DNA of 60,016 bases. It comes from a virus (Duplodnaviria > Caudoviricetes). Numbering within the stretch: the stretch's first letter is position 1; each line of letters opens with the position of its first letter. Of the stretch, positions 7,262 through 58,388 are shown one piece after another. The stretch is from positions 1 through 60,016 of IMG/VR virus record IMGVR_UViG_3300049930_000038, one strand, 5' to 3'. The notes beneath the pieces are model-generated. The model saw only the letters and a list, made by a program, of their open reading frames with translations, did no database searches and had not been told where the DNA came from. A program made the position numbers and the translations under genes.

Positions 7262-7286
7262 TCAAGGGCGGCGCAGTCGAGCCGTT
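7262..7286 (+). promoter_or_regulatory. Sigma28-like promoter
   Basis: TCAAG-N14-GCCGTT, ATG 10 nt later at 7297. Confidence 0.65.
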
Positions 7287-7296
7287 CCCTGCCGCC

Positions 7297-7503
7297 ATGG
7301 GTCAAGGCAAGGTCGAGAAACCTGTTACGCTAACCGAGCTGCGCGACGCGAGCACTAGCCTGAAAGCATGGCGCACCGGCGCCCTCGTTCGCCTCGCGCG
7401 CAAGCAGACCGAGCGAGTCATGTCACGACGCAGCGGCACGAGGCCGGTCGTCGCTGACGGGCCGCCGAGCAGCAGGAAAAACCGACATGGGATCAACCGA
7501 TAA
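7297..7503 (+). CDS. Small basic hypothetical protein
   Basis: 68 aa directly after promoter motif, overlaps recT start. Confidence 0.55.
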   Translation: MGQGKVEKPVTLTELRDASTSLKAWRTGALVRLARKQTERVMSRRSGTRPVVADGPPSSRKNRHGINR

Positions 7504-8620
7504 CCGACGACCGCAGGGGCAGCGACCGCAGCAGGCGCGCCCACAGACGCAGGCGCAGACGCCGCCGCAGGGCGAGCAGCGTCAGCCAACCAAGCTCGAC
7601 GACGTGCGGGCCCTCGTGAAACATCGCATGACGCCCGCCATCTCGCGGCTGCTCGCACACCGCTCGGTCGAGGACCGCACGCGGTTCGCGCAGGTGTTCC
7701 TAAACGCGCTCGAGGTGAACCCGGAACTGATCGAGTGCAGCCCGGGCTCGATCGCGCGAGCGATGCAGCACTGCGCCGAGGTCGACCTCGTGCCGGGCGG
7801 CGCCTACCCGCACGCCTATTTGCTTCCCTATTGGAACAAGGATCGCAAGGTTCACGAGGTCCAGTTTCAGATCTCGGTTTGGGGTTATGTCGAGCTGATC
7901 CGCCGCGCCGGCGTTCAAAAGGTGTGGGCCGACGTCATCTATTCGGGCGACAAATACAAGCTGACGAGCGGCAGCGCCGGCAAGTCGATCGAGCACGAGC
8001 CGAATTGGTTCGCGCCTCGCGCCGAGCGGGGCAAGCTCGTCGGCGCGTACGCCTGCGCGCTGCTCGAGAACGGCGAGGTCGTCTGCGAACCCGTCAGCGC
8101 CGAGGATCTCGAGCTCGCCCGCGCGCAGAACCGCGGCAAGTCGCCGGCATGGGAACTGTGGCCCGATCAGCAGCGGCAGAAAGTCGCGCTGAAACGCCTG
8201 CAGAAATACCTGCCGAAAGGCCCGGCTGATCGCGCGCTCGAGCTCGACGAGGATCCCGGCACGCGCCCTCGCGGCATCATCGACGCCGAGGGGCACGAGG
8301 TGTCGCCCGTCGACGACGAGCCGCAGCAGCAGCAGGGCCCGCTCGACCGCGCCGTCGAGCAGCACAAGGTCGAGCAGCAGGTGCAGCAGACGCAGGGCGG
8401 CAGTCAGACGACGACGCTCGATCGCGATCAACTGTTCGGCATGCTGTGCGACGCCGACGAGCGATGGCAGACCGAGCGCGCGCGCGTCGACGGATGGGAC
8501 GACATCGAGGCGCTGTCGGCGCTCGCGTTCCTGCGCACCATCCTCGGCGACGGTGTCGGTCTCGATGGGACACCGCCCGTCATGCCCGAGTGCATGCGCC
8601 TGCCGCGCGACGCCGCGTGA
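7487..8620 (+). CDS. recT: RecT-family single-strand annealing protein
   Basis: HAYLLPY, QFQISVWGYVELIRRAG, GAYACA, KVALKRLQKYLP. Confidence 0.9.
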   Translation: MGSTDNRRPQGQRPQQARPQTQAQTPPQGEQRQPTKLDDVRALVKHRMTPAISRLLAHRSVEDRTRFAQVFLNALEVNPELIECSPGSIARAMQHCAEVDLVPGGAYPHAYLLPYWNKDRKVHEVQFQISVWGYVELIRRAGVQKVWADVIYSGDKYKLTSGSAGKSIEHEPNWFAPRAERGKLVGAYACALLENGEVVCEPVSAEDLELARAQNRGKSPAWELWPDQQRQKVALKRLQKYLPKGPADRALELDEDPGTRPRGIIDAEGHEVSPVDDEPQQQQGPLDRAVEQHKVEQQVQQTQGGSQTTTLDRDQLFGMLCDADERWQTERARVDGWDDIEALSALAFLRTILGDGVGLDGTPPVMPECMRLPRDAA

Positions 8621-8628
8621 TCTTTTCG

Positions 8629-8664
8629 GGACGCCGAGGGGTTAACCTGCCACCCTCGGCGTCC
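8629..8664 (+). terminator. Hairpin after recT
   Basis: 12-bp perfect stem GGACGCCGAGGG/CCCTCGGCGTCC, weak U tract. Confidence 0.5.
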
Positions 8665-8692
8665 GTTCCAATCCGGCTCGGAGGGTTTCAGT

Positions 8693-8878
8693 TTGGCAGT
8701 GTTGCTCGTGTTCGGTCTCGCGCCGCGCGCCGTCGCGATTTATGAGTCGTTCGGTGACAACGACGCCGAGCGCCGCGAGGCGCTCGAACTCGTGCTCGAC
8801 GAGGCGAACCGTCGTCGCCTCGCCGAGCTCGACAATCGATGGCGCCGCGTCGCGCGCCGGGGCGGCGGGTCGTCGTGA
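8693..8878 (+). CDS. Hypothetical protein
   Basis: TTG start with GGAGGG SD, GTGA coupling to next gene. Confidence 0.55.
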   Translation: MAVLLVFGLAPRAVAIYESFGDNDAERREALELVLDEANRRRLAELDNRWRRVARRGGGSS

Positions 8879-9171
8879 CCGAGCGCCTGACGGGTTCGCC
8901 CGAGCCGTCCTCGCGCCTCGGCGCTGCCGACGCAGGATGGCGGTTCGCCGAGCGGCATCGAGGGCAGGTGCTCGTGCTGCAGCACTCGGGCGCCGAGGGC
9001 AACCGATGGCAGCTGCGCGCCGCCTGCGTCGAGCTCGGCGCTGCGGTCGCGACGTTCAAGGCACGCCGGCAGCAGGTCGTGCGCGGCGCTGTCGCGCTGT
9101 GGCACGCCGGGCGTGTGATCCGATACGAGACGGCGAGCGACCGAGCGACGATTTCGTTCAAGGCAGGCTGA
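8875..9171 (+). CDS. Hypothetical protein
   Basis: GTG start overlapping upstream stop. Confidence 0.55.
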   Translation: MTERLTGSPEPSSRLGAADAGWRFAERHRGQVLVLQHSGAEGNRWQLRAACVELGAAVATFKARRQQVVRGAVALWHAGRVIRYETASDRATISFKAG

Positions 9172-9182
9172 CTCGTGCCGTT
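9158..9182 (+). promoter_or_regulatory. Sigma28-like promoter
   Basis: TCAAG-N14-GCCGTT, in-frame GTG 10 nt later at 9193. Confidence 0.6.
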
Positions 9183-9192
9183 CACAGGGTCG

Positions 9193-9543
9193 GTGCCTGC
9201 CGCTGCTGTTTCGTTTCCGACCGACGAGCTCGAACGCTTGCCGGTCGTCACGTGCTCGTGCGGGCAGCACGCCGCCGGCGCCTGCCCCGATGACTATCGG
9301 CGCGACCTCGAACCGAGCGACTCGACGATCGCCGAGCTGCAGTCGGTCATCGTGGCGATGCGACACCGCGACGGCGACGACGCCGTCGAGCTCGAACGCG
9401 ACCTCGACCTGTACCTGCAGCAGCTGCATCACGTCAGCTGCTTGCCCGATCCGCAGTCGCCGCCGCGTTCGGTGCAGCTGATCCGTCTGTCTATCGCGCT
9501 CGCCGCGACCGCCATCCGTTACCGCGAGGAACTGAAACCATGA
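9193..9543 (+). CDS. Hypothetical protein (CxCGxH...C)
   Basis: ATGA coupling to ATPase gene. Confidence 0.65.
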   Translation: MPAAAVSFPTDELERLPVVTCSCGQHAAGACPDDYRRDLEPSDSTIAELQSVIVAMRHRDGDDAVELERDLDLYLQQLHHVSCLPDPQSPPRSVQLIRLSIALAATAIRYREELKP

Positions 9544-10841
9544 CCGAGAAACCGAAAGCCGACCGACCCCTGCGCATCGTTGACCTGAAAGTGCAGAACA
9601 TCAAACGTGTTCGCGCCGTGCACATTACGCCGAACGGCGACAGCACCGTGATCCTCGGCGGCAAAAACGGCGCCGGCAAAACGAGCGTGCTCGACGCGAT
9701 CGCGATGGCGCTCGGCGGCGCGCGCGCGATCCCGAGCGACCCGGTGCGGCACGGCGCCAAACGGGGCAGCATCGTTGCGAACCTCGGCGACCTCGTCGTC
9801 GAGCGCGTGATCTCGCCCGACGGGCAGACGACGCTGACGGTGCGCGACGCCGACGGCAACCGGCAGCGCTCGCCGCAAAAGATACTCGACGAGCTGTGCT
9901 CGCGGATCGCGTTCGACCCGCTCGCGTTCATGTCGATGGATCCGGGCAAGCAGAACGAACAGCTGCGGCAGCTGCTCGGGCTCGACTTTACCGAGCTCGA
10001 TGCCGAGCACGAGCGTTGCTATGCGAAACGCACCGACATCAATCGCGACGCCAAGGCCGCCCGCGCGACGAGCGAGTCGGTCGTCGTGCCGCCGAACACG
10101 CCCGCGAAAGCCGTCGTCGTCGCCGACCTGCTCGCCGAGCTCGAACGGGCGAACGCTGCGGCCGAGGTCGTGCGCACACACGAGCGGGCCCTGACGACGC
10201 TGCGCACCGACATCGGGACGCTGACGACCGAGCTCGCCCGCATCGAACAGCAGCTGATGCAGAAACGGATGCAGCTGAAAGCGCTCGAACGGCAGGCCCC
10301 TGCGGCCGCGCCGGACACCGCTGCGATCAGCAAACAGATCGCCGAGGCCGAGGCGACGAACCGCGCCGTGCACGCCCGCGGGCAGCGCGACGCGCTCGAG
10401 CAAAAGGCGAACCTGCTCGACGCCGAGGCCGCCAAGCTGACCGCGCGCCTCGCCGAAATCGAGTCCGAGAAAGCCAAGGCGATCGCCGCCTGCGCGTTCC
10501 CGGTGCCGGGCCTGACCCTCGGCGACAGCGGGCCCATGCTCGACGGCGTGCCGCTCGAGCAGGCATCGCAGGCGCAAAAGCTGCGGGTCAGCGTCGCCCT
10601 CGGCATCGCGATGAACCCGCGCCTGAAAGTGCTGCTCGTGCGCGACGCCTCGCTGCTCGACGAAACGAGCCTCGCCCTCGTCGCCGAGATGGCATCGGCT
10701 GCCGACGCGCAGGTGTGGCTCGAACGGGTCGGCGACGGCGACCCGACCGCAGTCGTCATCGCCGACGGGCAGGTGTCCGGCGGCGACGTCGAGCCGGCGA
10801 ACGACTCGATCCCTGCGCCCGACGCGGCTGCCTCGGCATGA
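9540..10841 (+). CDS. SMC/SbcC-like AAA ATPase with coiled coil
   Basis: GKNGAGKTSVLDAI, long coiled coil, ASQAQ signature, LLVRDASLLD. Confidence 0.88.
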   Translation: MTEKPKADRPLRIVDLKVQNIKRVRAVHITPNGDSTVILGGKNGAGKTSVLDAIAMALGGARAIPSDPVRHGAKRGSIVANLGDLVVERVISPDGQTTLTVRDADGNRQRSPQKILDELCSRIAFDPLAFMSMDPGKQNEQLRQLLGLDFTELDAEHERCYAKRTDINRDAKAARATSESVVVPPNTPAKAVVVADLLAELERANAAAEVVRTHERALTTLRTDIGTLTTELARIEQQLMQKRMQLKALERQAPAAAPDTAAISKQIAEAEATNRAVHARGQRDALEQKANLLDAEAAKLTARLAEIESEKAKAIAACAFPVPGLTLGDSGPMLDGVPLEQASQAQKLRVSVALGIAMNPRLKVLLVRDASLLDETSLALVAEMASAADAQVWLERVGDGDPTAVVIADGQVSGGDVEPANDSIPAPDAAASA

Positions 10842-10845
10842 CCCG

Positions 10846-11199
10846 TCAGCCCGCCTTTCGCACGCTCGCCGGGATCGGGGTCAGCTCGGCCTCGCGCTCG
10901 GCGGCCTCGGCGAGGAACGCCTCGAGCGTCAGCCCTCGCCGCCCGGCTAGCGCCGCATGGTTCGCGCACAGCGGCACGAGCTCGGGCGGGGTGCCGAACG
11001 CGACGAGCCGCAGCACCCGGCTGAACGTGATGCCGCACGAGGGCACCGTGCAGGCGCGCCCCTCGACGTCGGTGCCTCGACACTTCCGGACCCGGCAGCG
11101 GACGCACCTGCTGCCGTTCGGGATCATGACGCCGCAGCCGCCGTCGCACGGTCGAGGCTCGGGCGTCGGTCGCTTGAACTTGGCTTTCCGCAATTGCAT
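10846..11199 (-). CDS. Cys-rich zinc-binding protein, counter-oriented
   Basis: ATG 11199; CxxxC, CxxC, CxxxxC, LCANH motifs; fills gap between plus-strand genes. Confidence 0.65.
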   Translation of the reverse strand: MQLRKAKFKRPTPEPRPCDGGCGVMIPNGSRCVRCRVRKCRGTDVEGRACTVPSCGITFSRVLRLVAFGTPPELVPLCANHAALAGRRGLTLEAFLAEAAEREAELTPIPASVRKAG

Positions 11200-11287
11200 A
11201 AGCGCACGGGTGGCATGGCGCTTTCCGGCCGGGCAAGTTTCGGGCGTAACGTTCGCCCCGGCCCGAGGGCGCAGCAGCGTTTCAGCC

Positions 11288-11307
11288 GTAACGTTCCACG
11301 CGAAACG
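11288..11307. repeat. 20-bp repeat, parS-like, copy 1
   Basis: GTAACGTTCCACGCGAAACG identical to 12105-12124. Confidence 0.75.
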
Positions 11308-11316
11308 GGGTGCCTC

Positions 11317-11523
11317 GTGAAACGCCCGGCGAACTGTCTGTGCCCGGCCTGCGGCGACGAGGGTGTCGTCGCGTCCTATGGCGGCGGGCGCCATTTCGTC
11401 GCCTGCTGCCTGACCTGCAGCGAGCGCCCGTTCGCGCCCTCGGGCGCAGGCGCGACCGAGGTGCAGGCCGTCGACCGCTGGATCCGCGCCGCCGAGCGGG
11501 CCGTGCTACGGGGTGCCGCATGA
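11317..11523 (+). CDS. Lar-like (restriction alleviation) zinc-ribbon protein
   Basis: CPACG...VACCLTC...ATEVQAVDRW pattern. Confidence 0.55.
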   Translation: MKRPANCLCPACGDEGVVASYGGGRHFVACCLTCSERPFAPSGAGATEVQAVDRWIRAAERAVLRGAA

Positions 11524-11804
11524 CGTGCGACGGCGCCGAGCCCGACGTGTGTTGGCACTGTCACGTGTGCCTCGTGCCCGAGCCGGCGCACTGCGATCAG
11601 TGCCCGCCGCCGGGCGAATGCGACCTCGTCGGGTGTACCGAACCGGGCTGCTGCGGCGAGTCGCCGGTGCCCTCGCGCCTCGACCGCTGCCTCGACCTGC
11701 TGCGCAGGGTCATCGACGACGGGAACGACGAGCGGGCCCTGCGCGCCCTCGCGCACGACATCGCCGTCGAGCTTGGCGTGCCCGACCCGCTCGCGCAGAA
11801 TTGA
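11520..11804 (+). CDS. Cys-rich hypothetical protein
   Basis: ATGA coupling; many Cys in the N-terminal half. Confidence 0.65.
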   Translation: MTCDGAEPDVCWHCHVCLVPEPAHCDQCPPPGECDLVGCTEPGCCGESPVPSRLDRCLDLLRRVIDDGNDERALRALAHDIAVELGVPDPLAQN

Positions 11805-11808
11805 CCCC

Positions 11809-11943
11809 GTGCCCGTCGCCGTGTTCGCCGCCCTCGTCGCACTGCTCGCCGTGTTCGCGATCGGGGTGCTCGTCGGCCGCCGGCGCGAGCGACGGCAGAT
11901 CGAGGCCCGCCTGTTCGGCGACGTCAGGGTGCGGGTGCGATGA
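11809..11943 (+). CDS. Small membrane protein (44 aa, not in ORF track)
   Basis: Hand translation MPVAVFAALVALLAVFAIGVLVGRRRERR...; ATGA coupling. Confidence 0.6.
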   Translation: MPVAVFAALVALLAVFAIGVLVGRRRERRQIEARLFGDVRVRVR

Positions 11944-12089
11944 CGCGACCGGCGCGGCGCCTGCTCGACGCGCTCGCCTGCGGCCTCGTCGCCGTGCTCG
12001 GCGCGACGGCGCTCGTCGCGCTCGTCATCGGGGTGGCCTGCTTTTGGGGTGGCATGACCGTCGGGCGGGCGAGGGTGCGACTGCGATGA
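11940..12089 (+). CDS. Small membrane protein (49 aa, not in ORF track)
   Basis: MTRPARRLLDALACGLVAVLGATALVALVIGVACFWGG...; ATGA coupling on both sides. Confidence 0.6.
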   Translation: MTRPARRLLDALACGLVAVLGATALVALVIGVACFWGGMTVGRARVRLR

Positions 12090-12847
12090 CCGCTCGTTTC
12101 ACTGGTAACGTTCCACGCGAAACGCGCGCCTGCCGATGGTGTCGCCGTGGGATCCCGGCGACGGCGCCGTCGTGGCAGCGGTTCTGCGGCAAGCGCTGCA
12201 GGCAGACCGAGTTTCGAGCTCGGCGGGTGTCGCTGATGGAGGGCGCCGACGGGCAGCCTCGGCGCATCGGGTACGCCGACCCGCCTTATCCGGGCATGGC
12301 GTTCCGCTGCTATGGCGATCAGGCGAACTATGCCGGCGAGGTCGATCATGCCGAGCTCGTCGCCCGCCTGCAGGGGTTCGACGGATGGGCGCTGTCGACC
12401 TCGGCGAAAGCGCTGCGCGACGTCCTGCCGCTGTGCCCGCCCGAGGCGAGGGTCGCCGCATGGGTCAAGCCGATCGGGGTCAGCGGCGAAACCCGCGGCC
12501 CGCACAGCACGTGGGAACCCGTGATCTATGTGCCGGCGCGCCTGCAGAAACCCGGTCGCCGCGACTGGATCAGCGCCATGCCCGCCCGCGGCGGCGACTC
12601 GGAACTGCTCGGTCGCAAGCCGCCGGCGTTCTCGCTGTGGCTGTTCGCGCTGCTTGGCACGGCGCCCGGTGACACGTTCGTCGACCTGTTCCCGGGCAGC
12701 GAGGCCGTGACCCGGGCATGGGCCGCAGCGTCGCTGCAGGCCTCGGGCGACGAGGTGTCGCGACGCGTTCTCGGCGACGGGGCGATCGAGTCATTACCCG
12801 CAAAACCAACGGGGCAGCCGCCCCTCGAAAGGACCGACATCCTATGA
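12086..12847 (+). CDS. Amino (m6A/m4C) DNA methyltransferase with N-terminal zinc finger
   Basis: YADPPY catalytic motif before FVDLFPGS SAM motif; N-terminal CxxC...FCxxxC. Confidence 0.8.
   Translation: MTARFTGNVPRETRACRWCRRGIPATAPSWQRFCGKRCRQTEFRARRVSLMEGADGQPRRIGYADPPYPGMAFRCYGDQANYAGEVDHAELVARLQGFDGWALSTSAKALRDVLPLCPPEARVAAWVKPIGVSGETRGPHSTWEPVIYVPARLQKPGRRDWISAMPARGGDSELLGRKPPAFSLWLFALLGTAPGDTFVDLFPGSEAVTRAWAAASLQASGDEVSRRVLGDGAIESLPAKPTGQPPLERTDIL
12105..12124. repeat. 20-bp repeat, parS-like, copy 2
   Basis: Identical to 11288-11307, read as NVPRET in the MTase. Confidence 0.75.
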
Positions 12848-13659
12848 GCTACCGATATCCGATGCAGGCACACACCTCGGAAACCCTACAGGCCGCCGTC
12901 GCGAAAGCGTTCGAGGCCGCGCTGCCCGTTGCCGACGAGCAAGGCGTCGGCCTCGTCGTCGTCGTCATCGACCTCGCCGAGCGCGTGCACTATCAGACGA
13001 ACCTCGGTCCCACGATGACGGCCGGCATGCTGTCGCGCTGCGCCGGGCTGTACGACGCCAAGCCGGCGACCCCGCACGGCGTGCCCGTCGTCCTGCAGCA
13101 GCCGCCCCTCGGCGGCGGCGCGACCGTGGCGACGGGCACCGGCGGCGGCAGCTCGGGCAGCGCGGGCAGCAGCACACACGGCCCGGGCGGCGGCGGCGCG
13201 TACCCGCCCGGCTGCGGACCGGTGTCGCAGGCTGACCGCGACAGCCTATACCGTTCGGGCATCATCCTCGGCGGCGCGGTGTACAGCGTCGTCAGCGACC
13301 CGCCGGGCGCCGGCGGCGCAGGGCGCCCGGGCCCGAGCGGCAGCGAGCTCGACCTCGCCGCGATGAACCGCGGCCGCGCTGCCGTTGGAATGCCGCCGCT
13401 GACGCAGGCGCAGCTCGACGAGCTCGCGTCGCTGCCGTCGCCGAGCGACGCGCCCGAGGCCGTGCCGAGCTATCCCGGCGAGGTGCTCGACGGGTTCCTC
13501 GAATGCAAGGGGTGCGCGCAGCCGTTCCCTGCCGGCGACGCCTATCAGCTGCGGGTCAAGGGCAAGCTGTTCGCGTTCCACCCCGGTCAATTCTGCCCGG
13601 ACTGCGCCACTCGGTACGACCGCGGCGACCTCGACCCTAGTTCCTCGCCGCCGGCTTGA
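12844..13659 (+). CDS. Hypothetical protein with Gly-rich linker and C-terminal zinc ribbon
   Basis: ATGA coupling; CKGC...FCPDC. Confidence 0.7.
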   Translation: MSYRYPMQAHTSETLQAAVAKAFEAALPVADEQGVGLVVVVIDLAERVHYQTNLGPTMTAGMLSRCAGLYDAKPATPHGVPVVLQQPPLGGGATVATGTGGGSSGSAGSSTHGPGGGGAYPPGCGPVSQADRDSLYRSGIILGGAVYSVVSDPPGAGGAGRPGPSGSELDLAAMNRGRAAVGMPPLTQAQLDELASLPSPSDAPEAVPSYPGEVLDGFLECKGCAQPFPAGDAYQLRVKGKLFAFHPGQFCPDCATRYDRGDLDPSSSPPA

Positions 13660-14092
13660 CCGGGCAGGCATCGCGCACGAGCAGCTCGATCCGTCGCACG
13701 TCCTCGCGCCCGGCGTCGATGACGAGCTGCGCAGCCTCGATGCGGCGCAGCTGTTCCTGCTCGCGGAACAGGCGGCGGTCGGCTCGCTCACCCTCGAGCA
13801 CACTCCACAGCGCGAACCCGACAATGATGACGGCGAACACGCCCGCCCATCCGGCGAGCTTGATCGTCGTCGTCGCGCTGCGCACCTGCGCCTTGACGTC
13901 GCCCGCCTCGCGCAGAACGTCGAGCATGTCGCGGCTGCGATTGTCCCATGCGACGAGGATCGGTTTCATCTGCGCGCCGAGCTCGAGCCGCACGGCCTCG
14001 CGGATCCATAGTCGCTGCGCCTCGGTCGGCGGATAATCGATCGTGCCCTCGTCGTCGACTAGCTCGAGGTGCGGGTCGGGTCTGTCTGTCAT
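13637..14092 (-). CDS. Membrane protein of lysis cassette (spanin-like?)
   Basis: One TM segment flanked by coiled coil, last gene of late operon. Confidence 0.6.
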   Translation of the reverse strand: MTDRPDPHLELVDDEGTIDYPPTEAQRLWIREAVRLELGAQMKPILVAWDNRSRDMLDVLREAGDVKAQVRSATTTIKLAGWAGVFAVIIVGFALWSVLEGERADRRLFREQEQLRRIEAAQLVIDAGREDVRRIELLVRDACPVKPAARN

Positions 14093-14319
14093 CGCGGTTT
14101 GCCCTCGAGCGCGTCGCGCCCGGCGCGCGCGTTCCGTCTGATGCGTTCGGCGAGCTCGCCGCCGTCGCGCACGAGACGGCGTGTCTCGCGGCGTGTTTGC
14201 TCGATGGCGAGGTCGAGCTGCTCGCCGACCTCGGCGAATGGTTCCGGCGGCAGGATCGTCGCCCGCGAGGACTGCGGCTCGCGCTGCAGGCGAGCGTGCA
14301 GCCACTGCCACAGTCTCAC
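14089..14319 (-). CDS. Hypothetical protein in lysis cassette
   Basis: GTGA and ATGA coupling on both sides. Confidence 0.6.
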   Translation of the reverse strand: MRLWQWLHARLQREPQSSRATILPPEPFAEVGEQLDLAIEQTRRETRRLVRDGGELAERIRRNARAGRDALEGKPR

Positions 14320-15600: not shown

Positions 15601-15637
15601 GGGCACACCTCCACTGCGCAGACTAGCAGGGCGACCG

Positions 15638-16291: not shown

Positions 16292-17800
<1,509 letters not shown>

Positions 17801-17812
17801 GCATTCACCCGT

Positions 17813-19420: not shown

Positions 19421-19423
19421 GCA

Positions 19424-48020: not shown

Positions 48021-48053
48021 AGGTTCCCTTTTCTGCGGCTGTGCCGCGTTGAC

Positions 48054-50866: not shown

Positions 50867-52459
50867 TCACGGCGCGCCCGCCATCGTATACGAACCGCCG
50901 CTCGCCGCACCTGACATAACGACGCCGAGCATCATTGCCGCCTGATCCCGCAGCTGCGTCAGCGCGTCGGCGCGGTTGTCTCGCCCGCCCGGCATGCCGG
51001 TGAACAACCGCAATTCCTTACAGAACCCCGGAACCCACTCGCCTTTCCGCGGCACCCGCACGCGGCCCGCTCGGGCGTCGGCTGCCGTCGGCAGGCTGCG
51101 CAGGTATTTGGATCCGCGAGGCACGACGGGCACGATGAAAAGCGATTGATGGGTCTGCGCGGCGACGAGCTCGAGCAGCCGGAACGCCGACACCTCCTCG
51201 AGCAGCACCGGCGCGCCCGGGTAATGCACCTGCTGCAGGTCGTTCAGGAACTCGAGCAGCTCGAGCGGTTCGAGCCACAGCTGCTCGGCCCAAACGACAT
51301 CGAGGTTCACGTCGTGCACGACCTCGCGGCGACGGGTTTCCGGATTGATGACCTCGCGTTTCGTCAGGTACGCCCATGCGACCACGATGCCCGAGGGGTC
51401 GGGCTCGGTCCGCTTGCGCTGCTGACGCTGCTTGCTCGGGTCTTTCTTTTCGATACCGGGGTCGCAGCTGATCAGCAGGATCGCGCCGTCGCTGCGCGCG
51501 CGGTCGTACCGCGCGAGCTCGGGAAACAGGCGCTTGCCGCGAGGGCTGACGTCCTGCATCAGGTTCGGCCAAAAGTAGGGGCCGAGCAGCGACGCCCACT
51601 CGATGATTGCCGGCAGGTCATAGCGCCACGGGCACAGCGGTTTGCCGCCGACGATCCGTTCGTTGCCGTCCTCGTCGCTCGTCACCTCGATGTCCTCGAG
51701 GATCGGCAGCGTGATCACCTCGAACCGCGGCGCGTCCGGATCCTTTTCCAACCAGTCTTTTATGCGCCCGATCGGATCGTCCTCGTTCCACCGTTGCATG
51801 CCGACGAACACGCTGCAGCCCGGCTCGCGCCGCGACATCAGCGTGCCGCGCAGAGTGTTGTAAGCCTCGTCGCGGTACAGCTGCGACTCGGCCTCGCTGT
51901 GATCTTTCAGCGGGTCGTCGTACAGGATCAGGTCGAACCCCTCGCCGATCCATTGCCCGTGCCGGCCGCCGGCGACGAACTGCCCGCCCGAGCTCGTCTG
52001 CCAAAAGGCGACTGACTTGCTCGGGTCGAAATGCTGCGCGGTCCGCTGTTCCTCGCCGACCCATACGCCCGCCTGCGCGGCGAGCTCGCGCACCTCGCGG
52101 CTGCGCCTGAACGCGATGTCGTTCGCATACGTGCAGAACGCGACGCGAGGCCTCGTGCGATACCGCAGCAGGCGCGCTGCCGCAGCCTGAAATATGCTCG
52201 TTTTGATGTGCCGCGAGGGCGCCTCGATGATGCAGAACACCGGGCCTTTCATCGCGCGGTCGAACGCATCGACGAGCCGGTGCATGTGCGTCGGCTTGCG
52301 ATAGCGCGGCTGATGCAGCGCGATGAACTTGTAAAGCTCGTGCTCGGCCTGCCGCACGTCGAGCGCGCGTCGCGCCTTGGCGCGCATCAGCAGGTCGCGC
52401 CGGTGCGCCTTGGCGATGTCGTCGTCGTCGGTCAGGTCGATCGGCAGCGGCGCGATCAA
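50867..52459 (-). CDS. terL: Terminase large subunit
   Basis: APSRHIKTS Walker A, LILYDDP Walker B, MQRWNEDD, nuclease DPG...DNRADA. Confidence 0.92.
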   Translation of the reverse strand: MIAPLPIDLTDDDDIAKAHRRDLLMRAKARRALDVRQAEHELYKFIALHQPRYRKPTHMHRLVDAFDRAMKGPVFCIIEAPSRHIKTSIFQAAAARLLRYRTRPRVAFCTYANDIAFRRSREVRELAAQAGVWVGEEQRTAQHFDPSKSVAFWQTSSGGQFVAGGRHGQWIGEGFDLILYDDPLKDHSEAESQLYRDEAYNTLRGTLMSRREPGCSVFVGMQRWNEDDPIGRIKDWLEKDPDAPRFEVITLPILEDIEVTSDEDGNERIVGGKPLCPWRYDLPAIIEWASLLGPYFWPNLMQDVSPRGKRLFPELARYDRARSDGAILLISCDPGIEKKDPSKQRQQRKRTEPDPSGIVVAWAYLTKREVINPETRRREVVHDVNLDVVWAEQLWLEPLELLEFLNDLQQVHYPGAPVLLEEVSAFRLLELVAAQTHQSLFIVPVVPRGSKYLRSLPTAADARAGRVRVPRKGEWVPGFCKELRLFTGMPGGRDNRADALTQLRDQAAMMLGVVMSGAASGGSYTMAGAP

Positions 52460-53094
52460 TTCATGCCCCGCAGCGCCTCGATGCCCTGCTCGGCGACGAG
52501 CGCGAGCTGCTCGTCGGTCAGGTCGTCGAACTCATCCTGCGTCGACAGCTTGACGTTTTTGGGTGGCTCGACGCCGTTGTAACGCCCGAACGCCTCGGCC
52601 GCGTCGAGCGCGACCCGCATCGCAGCGACGCTGCCGTTCGCGAGCATGCGCAGCCGCACCGTGCGAAAGGTCGTCAGGCACTCGGCGAGCGCCTCGGCGC
52701 GCGCATCGGGATCGCTGCGGAACGCATGCCGCAGCAGCCGGTTCGCCTCGGCCGCGACGTGCTCGACCGTGCCCGGGTGCACACCCCATTTCTGCGCGAG
52801 GGCGACGTGCGAGCTGCCCGCATGCCACTCGCCCCGCTGCATCATCGCGAGCACCTCGGCGACCCGCTGCTCGCGCGGGGTCAGCGACGCCTGCCATGCG
52901 TCGAACTCGTTCGGCGGCGAGGGCTGCTCGTCGCGAGCTGCTCTCGGCGACGGACGCCTGCTCGAACGTTTGGGGGCGCGAGCCCCCTTGCCCTTGGCAG
53001 TCGCGCGCGCGCGTGACCGATCGGCAGACGGCGCTCGTGCCACCCCCCGGGGTGAACTCGGTTTGCGCGAGGCAGGTTTTTTGCGGGTCGGCAT
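52456..53094 (-). CDS. Terminase small subunit (putative)
   Basis: HTH-like segment, ends DDLTDEQL, directly upstream of TerL. Confidence 0.7.
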   Translation of the reverse strand: MPTRKKPASRKPSSPRGVARAPSADRSRARATAKGKGARAPKRSSRRPSPRAARDEQPSPPNEFDAWQASLTPREQRVAEVLAMMQRGEWHAGSSHVALAQKWGVHPGTVEHVAAEANRLLRHAFRSDPDARAEALAECLTTFRTVRLRMLANGSVAAMRVALDAAEAFGRYNGVEPPKNVKLSTQDEFDDLTDEQLALVAEQGIEALRGMN

Positions 53095-53344
53095 GGCGTC
53101 TCGATGTGAAACGTACCGCGAGAAACCGATCGGTTCCACGGTGCGAGTGCAGCGACGTGCGGCGTCGAGTGTCGCACCTAAGTCGATCGGCTGCGCCGAT
53201 TCCCTCTAGGCAGACCCGGGTCGAGCAAGGCAGTCTGCGACGCGAGACGACGGGTCACGAGGCTGTCCCCCCCCGGCCCGGGCCCGTCGTCACGCTTATT
53301 CGCAGGCAGGGGTTTCGAGGGCGGGAACAGGGGCAGGCAGGGGC

Positions 53345-54559
53345 ATGACTGACGAGGGCGAGCGGCGAGCGGCTCGGGTGAAACACATTGACCCGGCGGC
53401 ACTCGCCGAGCTGCGAACGGCGCTCGAACGCGAGGGCAGCGGGCTGTCGCTGCACGCGATCGACGTCATCGATTATGTCGAGCACCTGCGCGAGCTGCCC
53501 GACCGCACCCTCGCGAAAGACTTTCTCGCGCTGTACACCTCGGCGCGCGCGCTGACGTCGGCGTGGCATCCTGCCGTCGAGCGCGCCGCGCTGTGGGATC
53601 AGGTCGAGCACCTCGGCCTGCACGTGCGCCGGCTCGCCCCGCTGTACGACGACGTTCGGATGCAGCTGAACCTGCAGCTCGCGACCGACCGCGCCCGGAT
53701 TGCCCGCGACACCGGGCAGCAGCCGCACACCGTTCGGGTGCTGCAGCTCGACGGCAGCGTCAGCGTCGAGTGCGACCATACGTTCAAGGGCACGCGCGCC
53801 TGCGTTCACTGCGGCACGACCGTCGACGAGCTGATCGCCCGCACGCGCGCCGCGGTCGCCGCGATGCAGCATCGCCCCGGCGAAACCGTCGCCGAGGCGG
53901 CGCGCCGGCACGGCCTCGAATTTCTGCCGGACGGCAGCGCGCGCCTGATCGACCCGCCGGTGCCGTTCGTCCTGCAGGGTGCCGTGCCCGCCCGTCCGGG
54001 CGCCGCGCTGCGGCCCGGGCAGGACACCGACCCGTCGCTGCTCGACGACCTGCGGCTGCCCTCGCTGCTGCCCGACGGCGTGCTGCACGCGACGCCCGAC
54101 GAGCTCGCCGACGTCATCGCCCGGCAGCTCGACGAGCACGAGGGGCGGGGCATCATCGCGCTGCGCGGTATCAGCGAGCTCGACGCTGCCCTCGAACCCG
54201 ACGACGAGCTGTCCGTTCCCATCACCCTCGGCCCGACGCTGCGCCCGCGCATCGAGGCACTCGTCGCGACGACCCGGCTCGGCCGCGATATCGAGCACGT
54301 CGTGCAGACGCTGTTCGTTCTCGGCATGCTCGAGGCCGAGGGGCAGGACCCGCAGGCGCACGTCGGCGCGCCGCATTCGCACGTCAGCGCCGAGGCGCTG
54401 TTCGTCCGGTTCGGCATGCCGCACGAGGGCGACGGCAAGGCCGCGCAGCAGCGCGCCGCCGTCCTGCGGCAGCTGTTCCTCGACCTCGTCGAATGGTGCG
54501 ACGAGGCCGACCCGCTGCGCCCGTCGCTGCTCGCGGCACTCGAACACCTGCCCCGATGA
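53345..54559 (+). CDS. Hypothetical protein
   Basis: 404 aa, typical codon usage, CxH...CVHCG. Confidence 0.75.
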   Translation: MTDEGERRAARVKHIDPAALAELRTALEREGSGLSLHAIDVIDYVEHLRELPDRTLAKDFLALYTSARALTSAWHPAVERAALWDQVEHLGLHVRRLAPLYDDVRMQLNLQLATDRARIARDTGQQPHTVRVLQLDGSVSVECDHTFKGTRACVHCGTTVDELIARTRAAVAAMQHRPGETVAEAARRHGLEFLPDGSARLIDPPVPFVLQGAVPARPGAALRPGQDTDPSLLDDLRLPSLLPDGVLHATPDELADVIARQLDEHEGRGIIALRGISELDAALEPDDELSVPITLGPTLRPRIEALVATTRLGRDIEHVVQTLFVLGMLEAEGQDPQAHVGAPHSHVSAEALFVRFGMPHEGDGKAAQQRAAVLRQLFLDLVEWCDEADPLRPSLLAALEHLPR

Positions 54560-55062
54560 AAGCCGGCATGTCCTCGGCGCCGCCGATCCTCGTGCACGTG
54601 TACGGGGCACGCAACGGCGAGCCGCACCCTGAACCGCTGCCGCCGCACCGGGTCGTGCGCTCGTGCGAGGACCTGCACGGTTACCCGCGATGCATGGGCG
54701 CCGCCGCGATGGGACCCGAGCGCTGCAGCTGCGACGACACCCTGACGCCCGAGCAGCACGAGCAGTGCCGGGCCGAGGCGTGGCAGGCGTACCTCGACCG
54801 GGGCGGCGACATGTGCGACGACTGCGCCTTTCGCAAGGGGTCGCCCGAGGCCGAGTCGCTCGCCGCGATCGCGAGCTCGCCCGTGCCGTTCCGCTGTCAC
54901 AAGGGCATGCCCGTCGACGCTCGACCCGGTTACCCGCAGCGCGACGCCTACTGCCCGGGCCTGCTCGTGCTCGCGGTCGACGGTTCGAAAGTCGTTACCG
55001 CGCCCGACTATCCCGTGTGCGCCGGCTGGAAACGCGCGCACGAGGCGCAGGCGAGGCGCTAG
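54556..55062 (+). CDS. Cys-rich hypothetical protein
   Basis: MCDDCAFRKGSPE...FRCHKGM...CAGW. Confidence 0.7.
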   Translation: MKAGMSSAPPILVHVYGARNGEPHPEPLPPHRVVRSCEDLHGYPRCMGAAAMGPERCSCDDTLTPEQHEQCRAEAWQAYLDRGGDMCDDCAFRKGSPEAESLAAIASSPVPFRCHKGMPVDARPGYPQRDAYCPGLLVLAVDGSKVVTAPDYPVCAGWKRAHEAQARR

Positions 55063-55063
55063 A

Positions 55064-55369
55064 ATGTCGACCGTGACTCGTCGCCCGACGCGCCTCGACA
55101 CCCCGCTGCCGGGTCACCGGTGCCCGGCATGCTGGTGTTCGCTCGTGCTCGACCCTCGGCGCGTCGGCGTTTGCCCGCGCTGTTTCGTGCTCGTCGTCTG
55201 CCTCGCGCCCGAGCGCCTGCAGCGGCTCGTGCCTGCCGACCTGACCCGGCTGTCGCTCGACGACCGGTGCCGCCTCGTCGCCGAGCAGGCGCACCTGATC
55301 ACGGTCGCCTCGAACGCATGGCGCGCGGCGCCGCGCACGCCGAGCCGCCCTCGGGTGCAGGTTCGCTAG
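55064..55369 (+). CDS. Zinc-finger protein
   Basis: CPAC...VCPRC. Confidence 0.6.
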   Translation: MSTVTRRPTRLDTPLPGHRCPACWCSLVLDPRRVGVCPRCFVLVVCLAPERLQRLVPADLTRLSLDDRCRLVAEQAHLITVASNAWRAAPRTPSRPRVQVR

Positions 55370-55661
55370 CGTCCTCGGCCGAGCACTGCAGGCACTGCCA
55401 CGGCGACAGTTTCGGGAACGGCCCGCGCCCGCTCGGGCGGGTATCCCACTGCTCGGGCGTGACGAGCTCGCTGCAGCGCGGGCAGTGCCGCAGCCGGCGC
55501 ACCCCGCGAGGCACCGCGCCCGGGTGCGGGAACCCGTGACAGTCGGTGCTGTACCGAGCCGGGCACCGGTCGCAGGCCGCGTCGGGCCCGTGATAACCGC
55601 AGGGCAGCGCCGCCGTCGCCGGTCCGGGCGCCGCCTCGTCGAGCTCGTCGTCGCCGTCCAT
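55299..55661 (-). CDS. Cys-rich protein, counter-oriented
   Basis: CxxH, CxxC x3; divergent from promoter at 55696. Confidence 0.55.
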   Translation of the reverse strand: MDGDDELDEAAPGPATAALPCGYHGPDAACDRCPARYSTDCHGFPHPGAVPRGVRRLRHCPRCSELVTPEQWDTRPSGRGPFPKLSPWQCLQCSAEDASEPAPEGGSACAAPRAMRSRRP

Positions 55662-55695
55662 TGGCGACCCACTACGGCACGGCCGTCGATTTCGT

Positions 55696-55720
55696 TCAAG
55701 TCACGGCGCGCCGCGCCGAT
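55696..55720 (+). promoter_or_regulatory. Sigma28-like promoter
   Basis: TCAAG-N14-GCCGAT then CTGATGGGC-ATG. Confidence 0.75.
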
Positions 55721-55729
55721 CTGATGGGC

Positions 55730-55900
55730 ATGACTCGTAAGCAGCAGATTGCAGAACGCGCCCGACTGATCGCCCTGCTCGGGTGGGCACCCGAACCGCC
55801 CGTCGCCGCCGAACGCTACTGCGCCACGACGGGCGAGCTGTGGCAGACCGCCGTCGAGCAGTGCGGGCGCGACGCCGCTGACGCCGCGAGGGCGGGCTGA
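55730..55900 (+). CDS. Hypothetical protein
   Basis: ATG 9 nt after promoter; TGATG coupling. Confidence 0.6.
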   Translation: MTRKQQIAERARLIALLGWAPEPPVAAERYCATTGELWQTAVEQCGRDAADAARAG

Positions 55901-56262
55901 TGGCGGCCGAGCATCGCTGCACGGCGCGCTACGCCGACGACGACGGCAAGCCTACCGTTTCGGAACACACCTCGTTCGGGCTCGTCGACGGCAAGGGTCG
56001 CGAGCTCGGCGCCCGCACCCTGATCCATGCGCTGACCGTCGAGCTCGGCCCGATCGCCGAGTGGCACTCGGCGATTAGGCTCGCGCCCGGCCTGTATTTC
56101 ACGGTGTGGGTGCACGTCACACGCGACGCGCAGCCGTACGGTGCGAGCCCTCGAACGCACTACCTCGGGACGGTCGAGGCCGCGCAGCGCAAGGCCGCCG
56201 AGCTCGTCGCCGGCGCGCGCAAACGGTACGAGAAACGCGCCGCAGCGGGGCAAAAGCTGTGA
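55900..56262 (+). CDS. Hypothetical protein
   Basis: FGLVDGKGRELGA...VTRDAQPYGAS. Confidence 0.7.
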   Translation: MAAEHRCTARYADDDGKPTVSEHTSFGLVDGKGRELGARTLIHALTVELGPIAEWHSAIRLAPGLYFTVWVHVTRDAQPYGASPRTHYLGTVEAAQRKAAELVAGARKRYEKRAAAGQKL

Positions 56263-56486
56263 GCCGCACGCTGCGCATCGTTCTGAACCTGACGCCCGAC
56301 GAGGCGAGCGACCTGCACTCGGCGGTCGCCGTCCTGCGCGAGCGGCGCGCCGAGCAGGCCGAGCAGGCCGAGCTCGACCCGAGCGTCGCGATACCGCGCG
56401 AGGTCGAGGCGCTGCGCCTCGCCGTGCGAGCGCGCATGCTGCACGACCGGGTCGCCGCCGCGATCGAGCTCGCGCGCAAGCGCTGA
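56259..56486 (+). CDS. Hypothetical protein
   Basis: GTGA coupling. Confidence 0.6.
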   Translation: MSRTLRIVLNLTPDEASDLHSAVAVLRERRAEQAEQAELDPSVAIPREVEALRLAVRARMLHDRVAAAIELARKR

Positions 56487-56553
56487 CCCGTTCTAGTGCA
56501 GAGCTCCTATGTGGAACGCCCGCAGTTTTCTGTCGGGCGGATCCGCTTTTTGT

Positions 56554-56578
56554 TCAAGGCTCGGCAGGCCGCGCCGAT
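56554..56578 (+). promoter_or_regulatory. Sigma28-like promoter
   Basis: TCAAG-N14-GCCGAT then CTGATGGGC. Confidence 0.75.
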
Positions 56579-56590
56579 CTGATGGGCATC

Positions 56591-57157
56591 ATGAACGCGA
56601 CGCCGAACGCGGCCCCTGCCGCCCTCGAACCCGTTGACCCCTCGACCGTGCACCCGTGGGAACGCGCCGGCCTCGGCAAGGCGCCGTTTTTTTACCTCGG
56701 CGTTTCCGAGAAACGGGGCCCGATCGTCATCGAGCAGCGCGACGGCACGACGCTGACGATCGGTTCCGAGGGTCAGCCGATGGGCAGCTGCGCGTACTGC
56801 GGCCTCGGCATCGCCGAGTGTCATCATGTGCGCTCGAGCGACGGTAAGAAATTCACGGTCGGCTGCGATTGCATCCGTCGCGTGTATGGCGACGACCGCG
56901 CACCCCTGCGCGTCAAGGCCGAGGCCGCCTCGCGAAAGCGCCGGAACGCCGCCGCCAAGGCCCGCCGCGCCGCCAAGTCGACGACCGATCAGGCCGAGCT
57001 CGACGCGCTGCTCGCCGACGAGGGCACCCGCGCCAAGCTCGCCGCCCTGCCCGGGCCCCGTTTCGGAACGCTGCTCGAGCATGCCGAATTTATGGCGCGC
57101 AAGGCCGGCGCCGCAGGCCGAGCTCGGGCGCTGAAAGCGATCCGCGCAGCACTCTGA
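56591..57157 (+). CDS. Zinc-binding hypothetical protein
   Basis: HPWERAGLGKAPF...CAYCG...FTVGCDCI. Confidence 0.75.
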   Translation: MNATPNAAPAALEPVDPSTVHPWERAGLGKAPFFYLGVSEKRGPIVIEQRDGTTLTIGSEGQPMGSCAYCGLGIAECHHVRSSDGKKFTVGCDCIRRVYGDDRAPLRVKAEAASRKRRNAAAKARRAAKSTTDQAELDALLADEGTRAKLAALPGPRFGTLLEHAEFMARKAGAAGRARALKAIRAAL

Positions 57158-57174
57158 TTCACAGTGCGACACCC

Positions 57175-57214
57175 CTCGGGCCCGATGCATCAGCGTCGGG
57201 CCCGAGTCGCTTTT
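57175..57214 (+). terminator. Intrinsic terminator
   Basis: CTCGGGCCCGA...TCGGGCCCGAG stem then TCGCTTTT. Confidence 0.7.
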
Positions 57215-57218
57215 GTGT

Positions 57219-57243
57219 TCAAGGCGCCCGAGCTCGCGCCGGT
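57219..57243 (+). promoter_or_regulatory. Sigma28-like promoter
   Basis: TCAAG-N14-GCCGGT then CTGATCGGC-ATG. Confidence 0.7.
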
Positions 57244-57252
57244 CTGATCGGC

Positions 57253-57705
57253 ATGGTTCAGTATCAAGTCATCGTGCACGAGCTCGCGTTCTCGGGTGTG
57301 CAGGGCGCGCCCTGCCCGATCGGTACGTTCAAGGGCAAGCGTGCCAAGCAGCGCGCCATCGACGCAGCTCGCGCCGAGGCCGGCGACCGCGTCAGCGTCA
57401 CCTCGGTCGAGGTCGTGCAGCGCGGCGGCAAGGGCGACGGCGTCGCCGTCGCGACGTTCCGGAACCCCGATGCTTACATGCCCGCAGGGCACAGCTACTG
57501 CGCCGGGATCTACGTGTGCCCCAAAACGAAAGACATCATCGGCGTGTATGCCGTCAGCCGCGACAGCCGCCTGCCGCACACCTCGCCGCCGGCGTACACT
57601 TTCGAGCGCCTCGTGCCGGGCGTCGTCGTTCCGGATCCGACCGCGACTCGCGAGTCGGTCCTCGCCAAAATCTATCCGCCTGCTGCCGATGCCGCATGCG
57701 CCTAA
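57253..57705 (+). CDS. Hypothetical protein
   Basis: ATG 9 nt after promoter. Confidence 0.7.
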   Translation: MVQYQVIVHELAFSGVQGAPCPIGTFKGKRAKQRAIDAARAEAGDRVSVTSVEVVQRGGKGDGVAVATFRNPDAYMPAGHSYCAGIYVCPKTKDIIGVYAVSRDSRLPHTSPPAYTFERLVPGVVVPDPTATRESVLAKIYPPAADAACA

Positions 57706-57727
57706 AGGTCGCCCCGTCCCTGCCGTT
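57703..57727 (+). promoter_or_regulatory. Sigma28-like promoter
   Basis: TAAAG-N14-GCCGTT, ATG 10 nt later at 57738. Confidence 0.6.
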
Positions 57728-57737
57728 CCGGATGAAC

Positions 57738-58388
57738 ATGAACACGCTGCTGCGTTCCGCCCTCGCCGCCCTGCTGCTCGTCGCCTGCGGCGGCGAGGCC
57801 GCCGACCCCTCGTCGCCCGAGTACTCGAACGACTCGGTCGAGTCGCCCGCGGCCGCGCCCGACGCGCCCGAGCTCGACGTGCTCGAGCCGGTCGCGCAGG
57901 TCGAGCCGACGCCCGAGCCCGAACCCGTCGTCGAGGTCGCCCCGTCGACGCCGGCGCCGAGCGACGAGCCCGAGGTCGAGGTGCTGCCCGAGCCCGAGCC
58001 TGCCCCGTCGCCCGCTACGCGTGACGACGAGGTCGAGGTCGAGGTCGAGCCGACGCCCGAGCCCGAGCCCGAGCCGGTGCCCGGCTGGATCCAGGGCGGC
58101 GACGTGTGCACCGACACCGCACAGTGCGTCGCCGGCCTGACCTGCGCCGCCGCCGGCCTGCTCGACGAGCTCGTGTGCGCGTACGACCGCCGTGCCGAGG
58201 CACCCCTCGCGCCGCCGCCGAGCTCGCCCGGCAGCGCCGCGGATGGTGAAGCCTGTAACACCGACGAGCTGTGCTCGAGCGGACTGTGCACCCCGGCTCG
58301 CCCGGGCGATATCACGGGCGTCTGCGAACCCATGCCTGCCGACGGCGTGACGCATTTCTGTCGGTGGCTGACGACCGGGTGCCGATGA
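57738..58388 (+). CDS. Lipoprotein with Pro/Glu linker and Cys-rich repeats
   Basis: LLLVAC lipobox; GDVCTDTAQCVAGLTC and GEACNTDELCSSGLC. Confidence 0.8.
   Translation: MNTLLRSALAALLLVACGGEAADPSSPEYSNDSVESPAAAPDAPELDVLEPVAQVEPTPEPEPVVEVAPSTPAPSDEPEVEVLPEPEPAPSPATRDDEVEVEVEPTPEPEPEPVPGWIQGGDVCTDTAQCVAGLTCAAAGLLDELVCAYDRRAEAPLAPPPSSPGSAADGEACNTDELCSSGLCTPARPGDITGVCEPMPADGVTHFCRWLTTGCR

Follow-up and report, generated by a model that had tools for sequence, protein, structure and literature searches.

Promoters of the sigma-28 family (FliA, SigD and WhiG) are described by the published consensus TAAAGTTT-N11-GCCGATAA, with the -35 element of WhiG promoters taking the form T(A/C)AA in a preprint on Actinomycetota. 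In Escherichia coli, flgKL and fliL are entered as TCAAG-N14-GCCGATAA in a table of chromatin immunoprecipitation sequencing (ChIP-seq) sites (PMC4183435), and the fliC promoter of Pseudomonas aeruginosa is given as (-36)TCTAAAG(-30) followed by (-15)GCCGATAA(-8). Herein we describe a set of sites with much the same layout in the viral record IMGVR_UViG_3300049930_000038, the whole of which (60,016 bases, 69.6 % G+C) was analysed and is referred to as the window. Five strong sites in the window, and their counterparts in three related viral records, are likely to form a clade-specific promoter family. The RNA polymerase reading these promoters would carry a specificity factor other than the housekeeping one, and the recognition geometry would be of the group 3 or group 4 sigma type.

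The initial annotation had placed six sites at 7262, 9158, 55696, 56554, 57219 and 57703, and the pattern TMAAG-N14-GCCGDT is indeed present at all six coordinates, with a seventh match at 16309 and every match lying on the plus strand. A genome-wide scan for the rate of false positives returned a mean of 0.13 matches in shuffled sequence against the 7 observed, and 0 of 100 shuffles reached seven. The stricter pattern GTTCAAG-N15-CCGNTC occurs exactly five times (7260, 9156, 55694, 56552 and 57217), against an expectation of 0.01. Five of the six proposed sites (7262, 9158, 55696, 56554 and 57219) prove robust, but that at 57703 is only weak, with a matrix score of 3.8. The five strong sites have in common an extended motif, WTTT-n-GTTCAAGG-N~13-CCGnTC, beyond which a start codon lies at 9-12 nt; in this motif, a T-rich block and a GT precede TCAAG, a G follows it, and a C follows the GCCGnT box. 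The -10-type box contains CGA at two of these sites (55696 and 56554), CGT at two (7262 and 9158) and CGG at one (57219).

Starts at the proposed distance of 9-12 nt past the box are borne out at all six coordinates, namely ATG 7297 (10 nt), GTG 9193 (10 nt), ATG 55730 (9 nt), ATG 56591 (12 nt), ATG 57253 (9 nt) and ATG 57738 (10 nt); at site 56554 an in-frame ATG at 56582, only 3 nt past the box, precedes ATG 56591. The letters said to be shared beyond the box were likewise recovered, as CTGATGGGC at 55696 and 56554 and as CTGATCGGC at 57219. The genes downstream are those originally named: recT, an SMC-like ATPase, small open reading frames (ORFs) without a family, and an ORF with the lipoprotein-type signal LLLVAC|GG. 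The sites and the units that they precede are as follows, with scores being leave-one-out values from the matrix described below unless stated otherwise.

7253-7296, plus strand: promoter-like site 1, GATTTGCGT-TCAAG (7262-7266), N14, GCCGTT (7281-7286), 10 nt, ATG; score 34.8.
7297-8620, plus strand: first unit, a 68-aa ORF (7297-7503), then RecT (7487-8620; Pfam RecT, E-value 3.2e-28).
9149-9192, plus strand: promoter-like site 2, GATTTCGT-TCAAG (9158-9162), N14, GCCGTT (9177-9182), 10 nt, GTG 9193; score 36.6.
9193-10841, plus strand: second unit, a 116-aa ORF (9193-9543), then a P-loop SMC/RecF-like ATPase (9540-10841).
55687-55729, plus strand: promoter-like site 3, GATTTCGT-TCAAG (55696), N14, GCCGAT (55715-55720), CTGATGGGC, ATG 55730; score 35.0.
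55730-56551, plus strand: third unit, three ORFs of no recognised family (55730-55900, 55900-56262 and 56259-56486).
56545-56590, plus strand: promoter-like site 4, CTTTTTGT-TCAAG (56554), N14, GCCGAT (56573-56578), CTGATGGGC, ATG 56591; score 38.7.
56591-57213, plus strand: fourth unit, a 188-aa Cys-rich ORF (to 57157), a hairpin with a 14-bp stem (57175-57206; -31.4 kcal/mol) and a T-run.
57210-57252, plus strand: promoter-like site 5, CTTTTGTGT-TCAAG (57219), N14, GCCGGT (57238-57243), CTGATCGGC, ATG 57253; score 25.1.
57253-58669, plus strand: fifth unit, a 150-aa ORF (57253-57705), a lipoprotein-like ORF (57738-58388; signal MNTLLRSALAALLLVAC|GG) and a 101-aa ORF (58364-58669).
57703-57737, plus strand: weak, degenerate look-alike, TAAAG, N14, GCCGTT, 10 nt, ATGAACACG.
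16309-16333, plus strand: seventh match, absent from the initial annotation, of the TAAAG type; matrix score -34.

The look-alike at 57703 retains the start ATGAAC, lacks the upstream WTTT..GT block and lies within the end of the preceding ORF; its matrix score ranks third among the non-site positions of the window, the strong sites scoring 25-39 when left out of the matrix. The match at 16309 is probably due to chance, being antisense to the last codons of a minus-strand gene of the tail-fibre region, within a stretch of GCC repeats and with no proper start after it.

With regard to conservation, a search of relatives for the motif, as the initial annotation had advised, yielded 15 further sites in three related viral records. 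Two of these, G1 (G001) and G2 (G002), are records of ~60 kb found via the portal protein, the former ~80 % identical to the window and syntenic with it, the latter ~70 % identical. The third, G3 (G003), is a 10.8-kb fragment added by a motif scan of the viral collection, in which five other contigs each had a single pattern hit; on rescanning, G3, one of the five, had two matches and proved to be a relative, whilst G004-G007 kept one each. The first sites were used to build a matrix, and scoring the window, G1, G2 and G3 with it gave 20 sites in total (five, four, eight and three, respectively), all of which lie on the strand of the early genes. Leave-one-out scores for these sites range from 17.4 to 47.9, and the best non-site position on either strand of the four records scores 16.1.

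Numbering the A of the ATG as +1, the motif comprises a T-rich block at -41 to -38, GTTCAAGG at -36 to -29, a variable spacer, and (G)CCGnTC at -15 to -9. Eleven positions are invariant in all 20 sites (T-40, T-39, G-36, T-34, A-32, A-31, G-30, C-13, G-12, T-10 and C-9), and the distance from TCAAG to the box is 14 nt in every case, whilst the spacer (-28 to -18) shows no conservation. C occupies position -33 in 18/20 sites and A in the other two; within the box, C-14 is found in 17/20 and G-15 in 14/20; position -11 is T in 15 sites, A in four and G in one; and position -8 is divided between A (9/20), T (9/20) and C (2/20). Since two blocks at a fixed distance are separated by a free spacer, the motif reads like DNA recognition by a sigma factor.

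The motif sites of the recT and ATPase units are orthologous in every record that covers them, with both blocks kept and the flanks and spacer diverged. Site 1, which has a small CCCCG..CGGGG hairpin just upstream, aligns with sites in G1 (41922) and G3 (8840), and the 68-aa ORF behind it is conserved in the same two records. Site 2, the spacer of which contains the stop codon (9169-9171) of the upstream ORF, has aligned orthologues in G1, G2 and G3, the start being ATG in G3 versus GTG in the window; the unit that it precedes is conserved in G1 and G2, and its ATPase matches Pfam AAA_23 (E-value 7e-11), with a sub-threshold match to SMC_N.

The small-gene cluster (54.6-58.2 kb) cannot be aligned between the window and G1, and the cluster motifs of G1 and G2 precede small genes that are largely unrelated to those of the window. 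Only the G2 site at 55062 precedes a homologue of the Cys-rich ORF 56591-57157, which is conserved in G2 and G3. None of the ORFs of the fifth unit has a family above the cut-off. A close relative seen in sequencing runs (one contig of 46.9 kb) has 54534-56179 replaced or inverted in several places between collinear flanks, making the cluster around this stretch a hot spot of change. Within G2, a site of full strength at 54806 (leave-one-out score 42.5) is followed by no ORF of at least 40 aa, with the next site lying 256 nt further on; the product of the 54806 site may be a small RNA or a very short peptide.

Beyond these records, the motif does not exceed the control count in seven distant relatives with 39-44 % TerL identity, and the family is therefore a narrow one. 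When metagenomes were scanned with the 34-nt pattern, at least 120 stretches came back, almost all of which are single chance matches or an unrelated conserved coding block; among the matches listed, the full motif occurs in the source contigs of G1 and G2, in L069 (identical to a G1 site) and in one new fragment, L054. Counts of exact 11-mers and upstream 8-mers in the distant relatives revealed no analogous promoter, only a ribosome-binding block in G9 (G009; L170-L172; 63 % G+C, 43 % TerL identity). There, the block GGAAACCAAGACCA stands directly before the ATG of many small genes, for example at 45474, 45806, 46265 and 47945, and resembles a conserved region for ribosome binding more than a promoter, in which case the design of gene starts would differ in that phage.

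The motif also keeps a fixed distance to gene starts. ATG is found 9-13 nt past the box at 18/20 sites and GTG at one, whilst only 5.4 % of random positions in the window have an ATG in that range. A hairpin with a terminal T-run, -19.5 kcal/mol or stronger, stands immediately before five of the 20 sites; upstream transcripts should stop at it, and therefore fresh initiation is needed there. In the window this applies to two sites (56554 and 57219) rather than to the single terminator-adjacent site originally reported. At such sites the T-run of the terminator doubles as the T-rich block of the motif: the third unit ends in a terminator-like hairpin (~56513-56545; -23.5 kcal/mol) with a T-run at 56547-56551, which supplies the upstream T-rich element of site 4. 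Judged by its layout, the stretch 56545-57213 reads as a promoter-gene-terminator cassette.

When the motif is laid on the frame of the P. aeruginosa fliC promoter, +1 falls on the tenth base past the box, coinciding with the A of the ATG. There is a bias in the first codons as well, with ATGA at 11 of 19 starts and ATGAAC at five, which may serve leaderless initiation or reflect duplication of cassettes. A frame of the extracytoplasmic function (ECF) type would set +1 on a G-run 2-4 nt earlier. Neither frame would appear to leave room for a Shine-Dalgarno sequence upstream of the ATG. The geometry supports a promoter family giving leaderless or near-leaderless transcripts, in which the transcript would begin with the A of the start codon, or else with the G-run lying 2-4 nt ahead, and the first gene of each unit would be translated from leaderless or nearly leaderless mRNA. 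Each promoter would open its own transcription unit on the early-gene strand, these being the units of recT and the ATPase together with three small cassettes, of which two are delimited by terminators.

Known leaderless transcripts, such as lambda cI from PRM and those of the class found in Actinobacteria, Deinococcus and Caulobacter, similarly have a -10 element a few bases before the start and no room for a Shine-Dalgarno sequence. Unlike in those cases, the design would here extend to a whole promoter family, and the -10 element is not TANNNT. The cassette at 56545-57213 also resembles the morons of lambdoid phages in joining a promoter-like site, one ORF and a strong terminator, with content that varies between relatives; it differs from them in that there is no integrase or other sign of lysogeny, and in that the same promoter would also drive the recT and ATPase units.

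Several observations weigh against this picture of leaderless promoters. A G-run (GGGC or GGGGC) stands just before many of the ATGs, and GGGG also occurs 4-8 nt before other genes of the phage, and thus a short leader with a Shine-Dalgarno-like element is a possible reading. Leaderless initiation at GTG, as would be needed at site 9158, is inefficient in E. coli. Some blocks of promoter plus first codons are near-identical within one genome, and could in part reflect recent duplication rather than selection. Furthermore, downstream of G2 54806, one of the 20 sites, there is no ORF of at least 40 aa, and the distant relatives described above lack the motif above control levels.

As to which factor would read these putative promoters, a sigma-28-family factor of the host is one tentative answer, under which the units would follow the motility or developmental state of the host. 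The initial annotation had regarded the sites as matching the sigma-28 consensus, and as far as the -35 element (TCAAG or TAAAG), the 14-nt spacing and GCCG are concerned, this agrees with published sigma-28 promoters. T-34, A-32, A-31 and G-30, as required by TAAA(G) or T(A/C)AA, are present in 20/20 sites, as is the spacing of 14 nt between TAAAG and the box GCCGATAA; the GC of the extended -10 element followed by CG is likewise recovered, with C-13, G-12 and T-10 invariant and G-15 in 14/20. The box variants GTCG, ACCG and TCCG occur among the E. coli FliA sites tabulated in PMC4183435 too. The distance from the box to the ATG equals that from the box to +1 in the P. aeruginosa fliC promoter as published, and the absence of any detected sigma factor from the phage also favours a host factor.

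The remainder of the box does not follow the consensus. The central CGA, which the Actinomycetota preprint presents as highly conserved across FliA and WhiG and as required in searches, is not maintained: -11 is A in merely 4/20 phage sites, compared with 48 of 52 motifs (T in two, G in one, C in one) by our own count of the E. coli FliA table in PMC4183435. None of the four non-A motifs carries that table's mark for FliA-dependent expression. The A at -11 is, according to a structural paper, the flipped-out base and the only non-template base read by sigma-28. Moreover, A and T are swapped at -11 between orthologous phage sites, which suggests that this position is not read as A. One FliA-bound E. 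coli site, inside secD, is listed in PMC4183435 with ACCGTTAT, and so sigma-28 binding with T at -11 is not impossible. The TAA expected at -10 to -8 is also missing, since T-10 is followed by C-9 rather than A in 20/20 sites, although these last bases vary among confirmed targets in the Actinomycetota preprint. G-36 is invariant where P. aeruginosa has T. A normally sequestered sigma factor would, in addition, be a risky, though possible, dependence for a probably lytic phage.

Set beside the E. coli flgKL/fliL and P. aeruginosa fliC promoters, the phage motif has in common T(C/A)AAG, a spacing of exactly 14 nt, GCCG (-15 to -12), T-10 and the distance from box to +1. It is unlike them in having mostly T-11 and always C-9, in the invariant extras G-36 and the T-run at -41 to -38, in its setting within a phage genome without flagellar genes, and in the predicted leaderless transcripts. 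The sigma-28 assignment is consequently only half supported: the motif is closest to sigma-28 and yet is not a canonical member of any class compared, so that the label describes a geometry rather than an established membership.

A second possibility, which likewise falls short of being probable, is that the promoters are a phage-specific middle class, read by a phage-encoded factor that profiles do not recognise, either a very divergent sigma factor or a small protein retargeting the host polymerase. A sigma regulon would not usually show conservation this long or this strict, with 11 invariant positions over ~32 bp in genomes that are only 65-80 % identical. Such strictness is reminiscent of the phage-specific promoter sets of T7, SPO1 and phiEco32. 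The motif is confined to one phage clade, being absent from relatives at 39-44 % TerL identity, and strict conservation within a clade is what a small unrecognised factor would be expected to leave. No described sigma consensus is matched in full. Candidates for such a factor exist, since most early ORFs have no family. The first genes of each strand block are without the motif, and another promoter class is therefore needed there.

Direct searches for the factor itself argue in the other direction. In agreement with the initial annotation, which saw no phage sigma factor, six-frame profile searches with Sigma70_r2, r4_2 and r4 in the three full genomes, and with TIGR02937 in those genomes and G3, gave no sigma match; the only r4-like match is the helix-turn-helix of a 100-aa XRE-type protein (6623-6925), which is present only in the window and G3. 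By eye, none of the early proteins common to the three full genomes resembles a two-domain helical sigma factor. A T7-like RNA polymerase was not matched in a profile search, the control of which gave no match either, and outside the structural genes there is no ORF long enough to encode one, all long ORFs being structural. The sigma-read promoter sets of SPO1 (gp28) and phiEco32 (gp36) resemble the present family in comprising many near-identical promoters, limited to one clade and set before middle-type genes such as those of recombination; unlike those systems, this phage has no detectable sigma-like gene.

Reading by another alternative sigma factor of the host, of the ECF (group 4) type and for example of the class with a CGTT -10 element, is rather unlikely. 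EcfG-type promoters have the consensus GGAAC-N16-CGTT, and CGT is found at the -10 position of 15/20 phage sites, 16 nt after the G of TCAAG, a usual ECF layout that is also compatible with sigma-28 spacing. The A/T variation after CG has a parallel as well, these bases being interchangeable between the -10 elements of Bacillus SigX and SigW. However, an AAC core in the -35 element is the most general feature of ECF promoters, and the block GTTCAAGG is without it; the GCC before CG is, moreover, sigma-28-like. A literature search returned no sigma factor promoter paper that pairs TTCAAG with CCGTT.

It is improbable that the sites are not promoters at all, and are instead DNA sites of a phage regulator, elements of translation initiation or of the mRNA, or remains of duplicated cassettes. 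Conservation does run into the first codons, in the ATGA and ATGAAC bias noted above, the G-run adjoins the ATG, and a conserved ribosome-binding block exists in the distant relative G9. Against this, two conserved blocks around a non-conserved spacer of fixed length are the signature of sigma recognition, and not of an RNA fold or a dyad operator, whilst the terminators immediately upstream of five sites would leave no transcript on which an RNA element could act. No Rfam family was matched in the window. Recognition by housekeeping sigma-70 finds no footing, as positions -12 to -7 read G-(T/A/G)-T-C-N-N, with no conserved A-11 or T-7, and no match of the TTGACA/TATAAT type occurs in 1-14000 or 52000-60016; a PIP-box-like reading (TTCGT-N15-TCGT) was dropped because its second half is not conserved.

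Returning to the promoter family as the favoured reading, its setting is a phage genome divided into late and early blocks. The first 82 bases of the window (1-82) recur exactly at 59761-59842, with the copies diverging thereafter, and the contig probably represents a complete assembly that closes into a circle, imperfectly and with population variants at the join. A gene call based on codon usage gives ~91 ORFs. The late genes form one long minus-strand block (13637-52854) that contains a small terminase-like helix-turn-helix protein, TerL, a Mu-type portal, MuF, protease/scaffold and major head proteins, as well as tail sheath, tape measure, baseplate, genes of the tail-fibre region and an M15 endolysin. 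From this gene content, the phage is a myovirus. Genes of early type occupy three blocks, two on the plus strand (2653-13659 and 53345-58669) and one on the minus strand, from 2495 across the contig ends to 58670. Their content includes a YqaJ exonuclease, RecT, the SMC-like ATPase, a methyltransferase-like ORF with a DPPY motif, a replication-organiser-like ORF, a DnaC-like loader and RuvC, the remainder being mostly ORFs without a family.

No integrase or rve transposase was found in the searches, and at least 79 TerL relatives all lie on contigs of at most 66.8 kb; the phage is for these reasons probably not temperate. Samples containing DNA of this phage, insofar as an organism is named for them, are labelled as soil, rhizosphere, freshwater or aquatic metagenomes. 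A 12-kb Megablast query gave no match among GenBank phages, a protein atlas search returned viral clusters only, scans of bacterial genome contigs with the portal and with a TerL alignment found no relative, and no tRNA genes were found in the phage. Portal, sheath and endolysin have only distant phage matches (23-40 % identity), those listed all being phages of Gram-negative Proteobacteria, whilst the TerL matches are mixed; this is a weak hint of a Gram-negative host. The M15 endolysin (14753-15217, within 14316-15543 on the minus strand) is flanked by a 109-aa lipoprotein-like ORF (LLVAC|G) and by a 146-aa ORF that has a coiled coil as well as membrane segments at its N-terminus. Both flanking ORFs are without a family match and appear spanin- or holin-like, which would fit a Gram-negative host.

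Further features of the genome lie apart from the motif. The divergent region between two early blocks (2496-2652) contains a block, CTCGCATTTTTCCGGCCGGCGTGTCAA, that is kept in the window, G1 and G3 and reads TTGACA on the minus strand, with GTTACC/GGTAAC repeats also present here in the window; the region is a candidate early promoter and operator of a different kind from the motif. An exact 19-nt repeat, GTAACGTTCCACGCGAAAC, occurs on the plus strand at 11288-11306 and 12105-12123, flanked by the inverted repeat CGTTTC...GAAACG, and both copies immediately precede Cys-rich ORFs and the methyltransferase-like ORF. In G1, the two places (45933 and 46988) carry it without a single changed letter despite an overall identity of ~80 %; it is absent from G2 and could represent a second regulatory element or a conserved NVPRET peptide. 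Palindromic words centred on GAGCTC are very frequent, CGCCGAGCTCG and its reverse complement occurring 23 times each with both strands counted; a lesser excess of such words is seen in some distant relatives, with Glu-Leu codon bias or avoidance and selection being possible sources.

Within the late block, 17334-17801 and 18948-19421 (minus strand) both align to the same two places in G1 at ~72 % identity. They form the 5′ ends of two large genes that are neighbours on the minus strand (16292-17800 and 17813-19420), which suggests that the two genes share an N-terminal module, in the manner of tail fibres that have been duplicated and differ in their tips. The stretch 46058-50818 (minus strand), between the portal and TerL genes, contains ~11 ORFs without a family, this 4.8-kb insert being in an unusual position for a Mu-type head module.

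Conserved promoter sets are a main handle on gene timing in uncultivated phages, and the present one is clean (20 sites with 11 invariant positions) and has an unusual output, in that every first gene is predicted to be leaderless. It resembles the flagellar sigma-28 class and yet breaks the best-understood rule of that class, the A at -11; the natural T-to-A swap at this position between orthologous sites makes the motif concretely testable. Should a host factor of the sigma-28 type be the reader, recombination and accessory genes would be expressed in step with host motility or development, and a search of the literature at the level of titles found no paper describing a phage regulon tied to host sigma-28 motility or development. 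Should a phage factor read the motif instead, that factor would belong to no known family. One speculative view of the whole is of a probably lytic clade of soil myoviruses that would express recombination genes and accessory cassettes as leaderless mRNAs from promoters of sigma-28 geometry with T-11, without a sigma factor of their own, these being read by a host sigma-28-family factor of altered specificity or by a new small factor that retargets RNA polymerase. For this phage clade, the motif marks the boundaries of transcription units and so provides a guide to their annotation.

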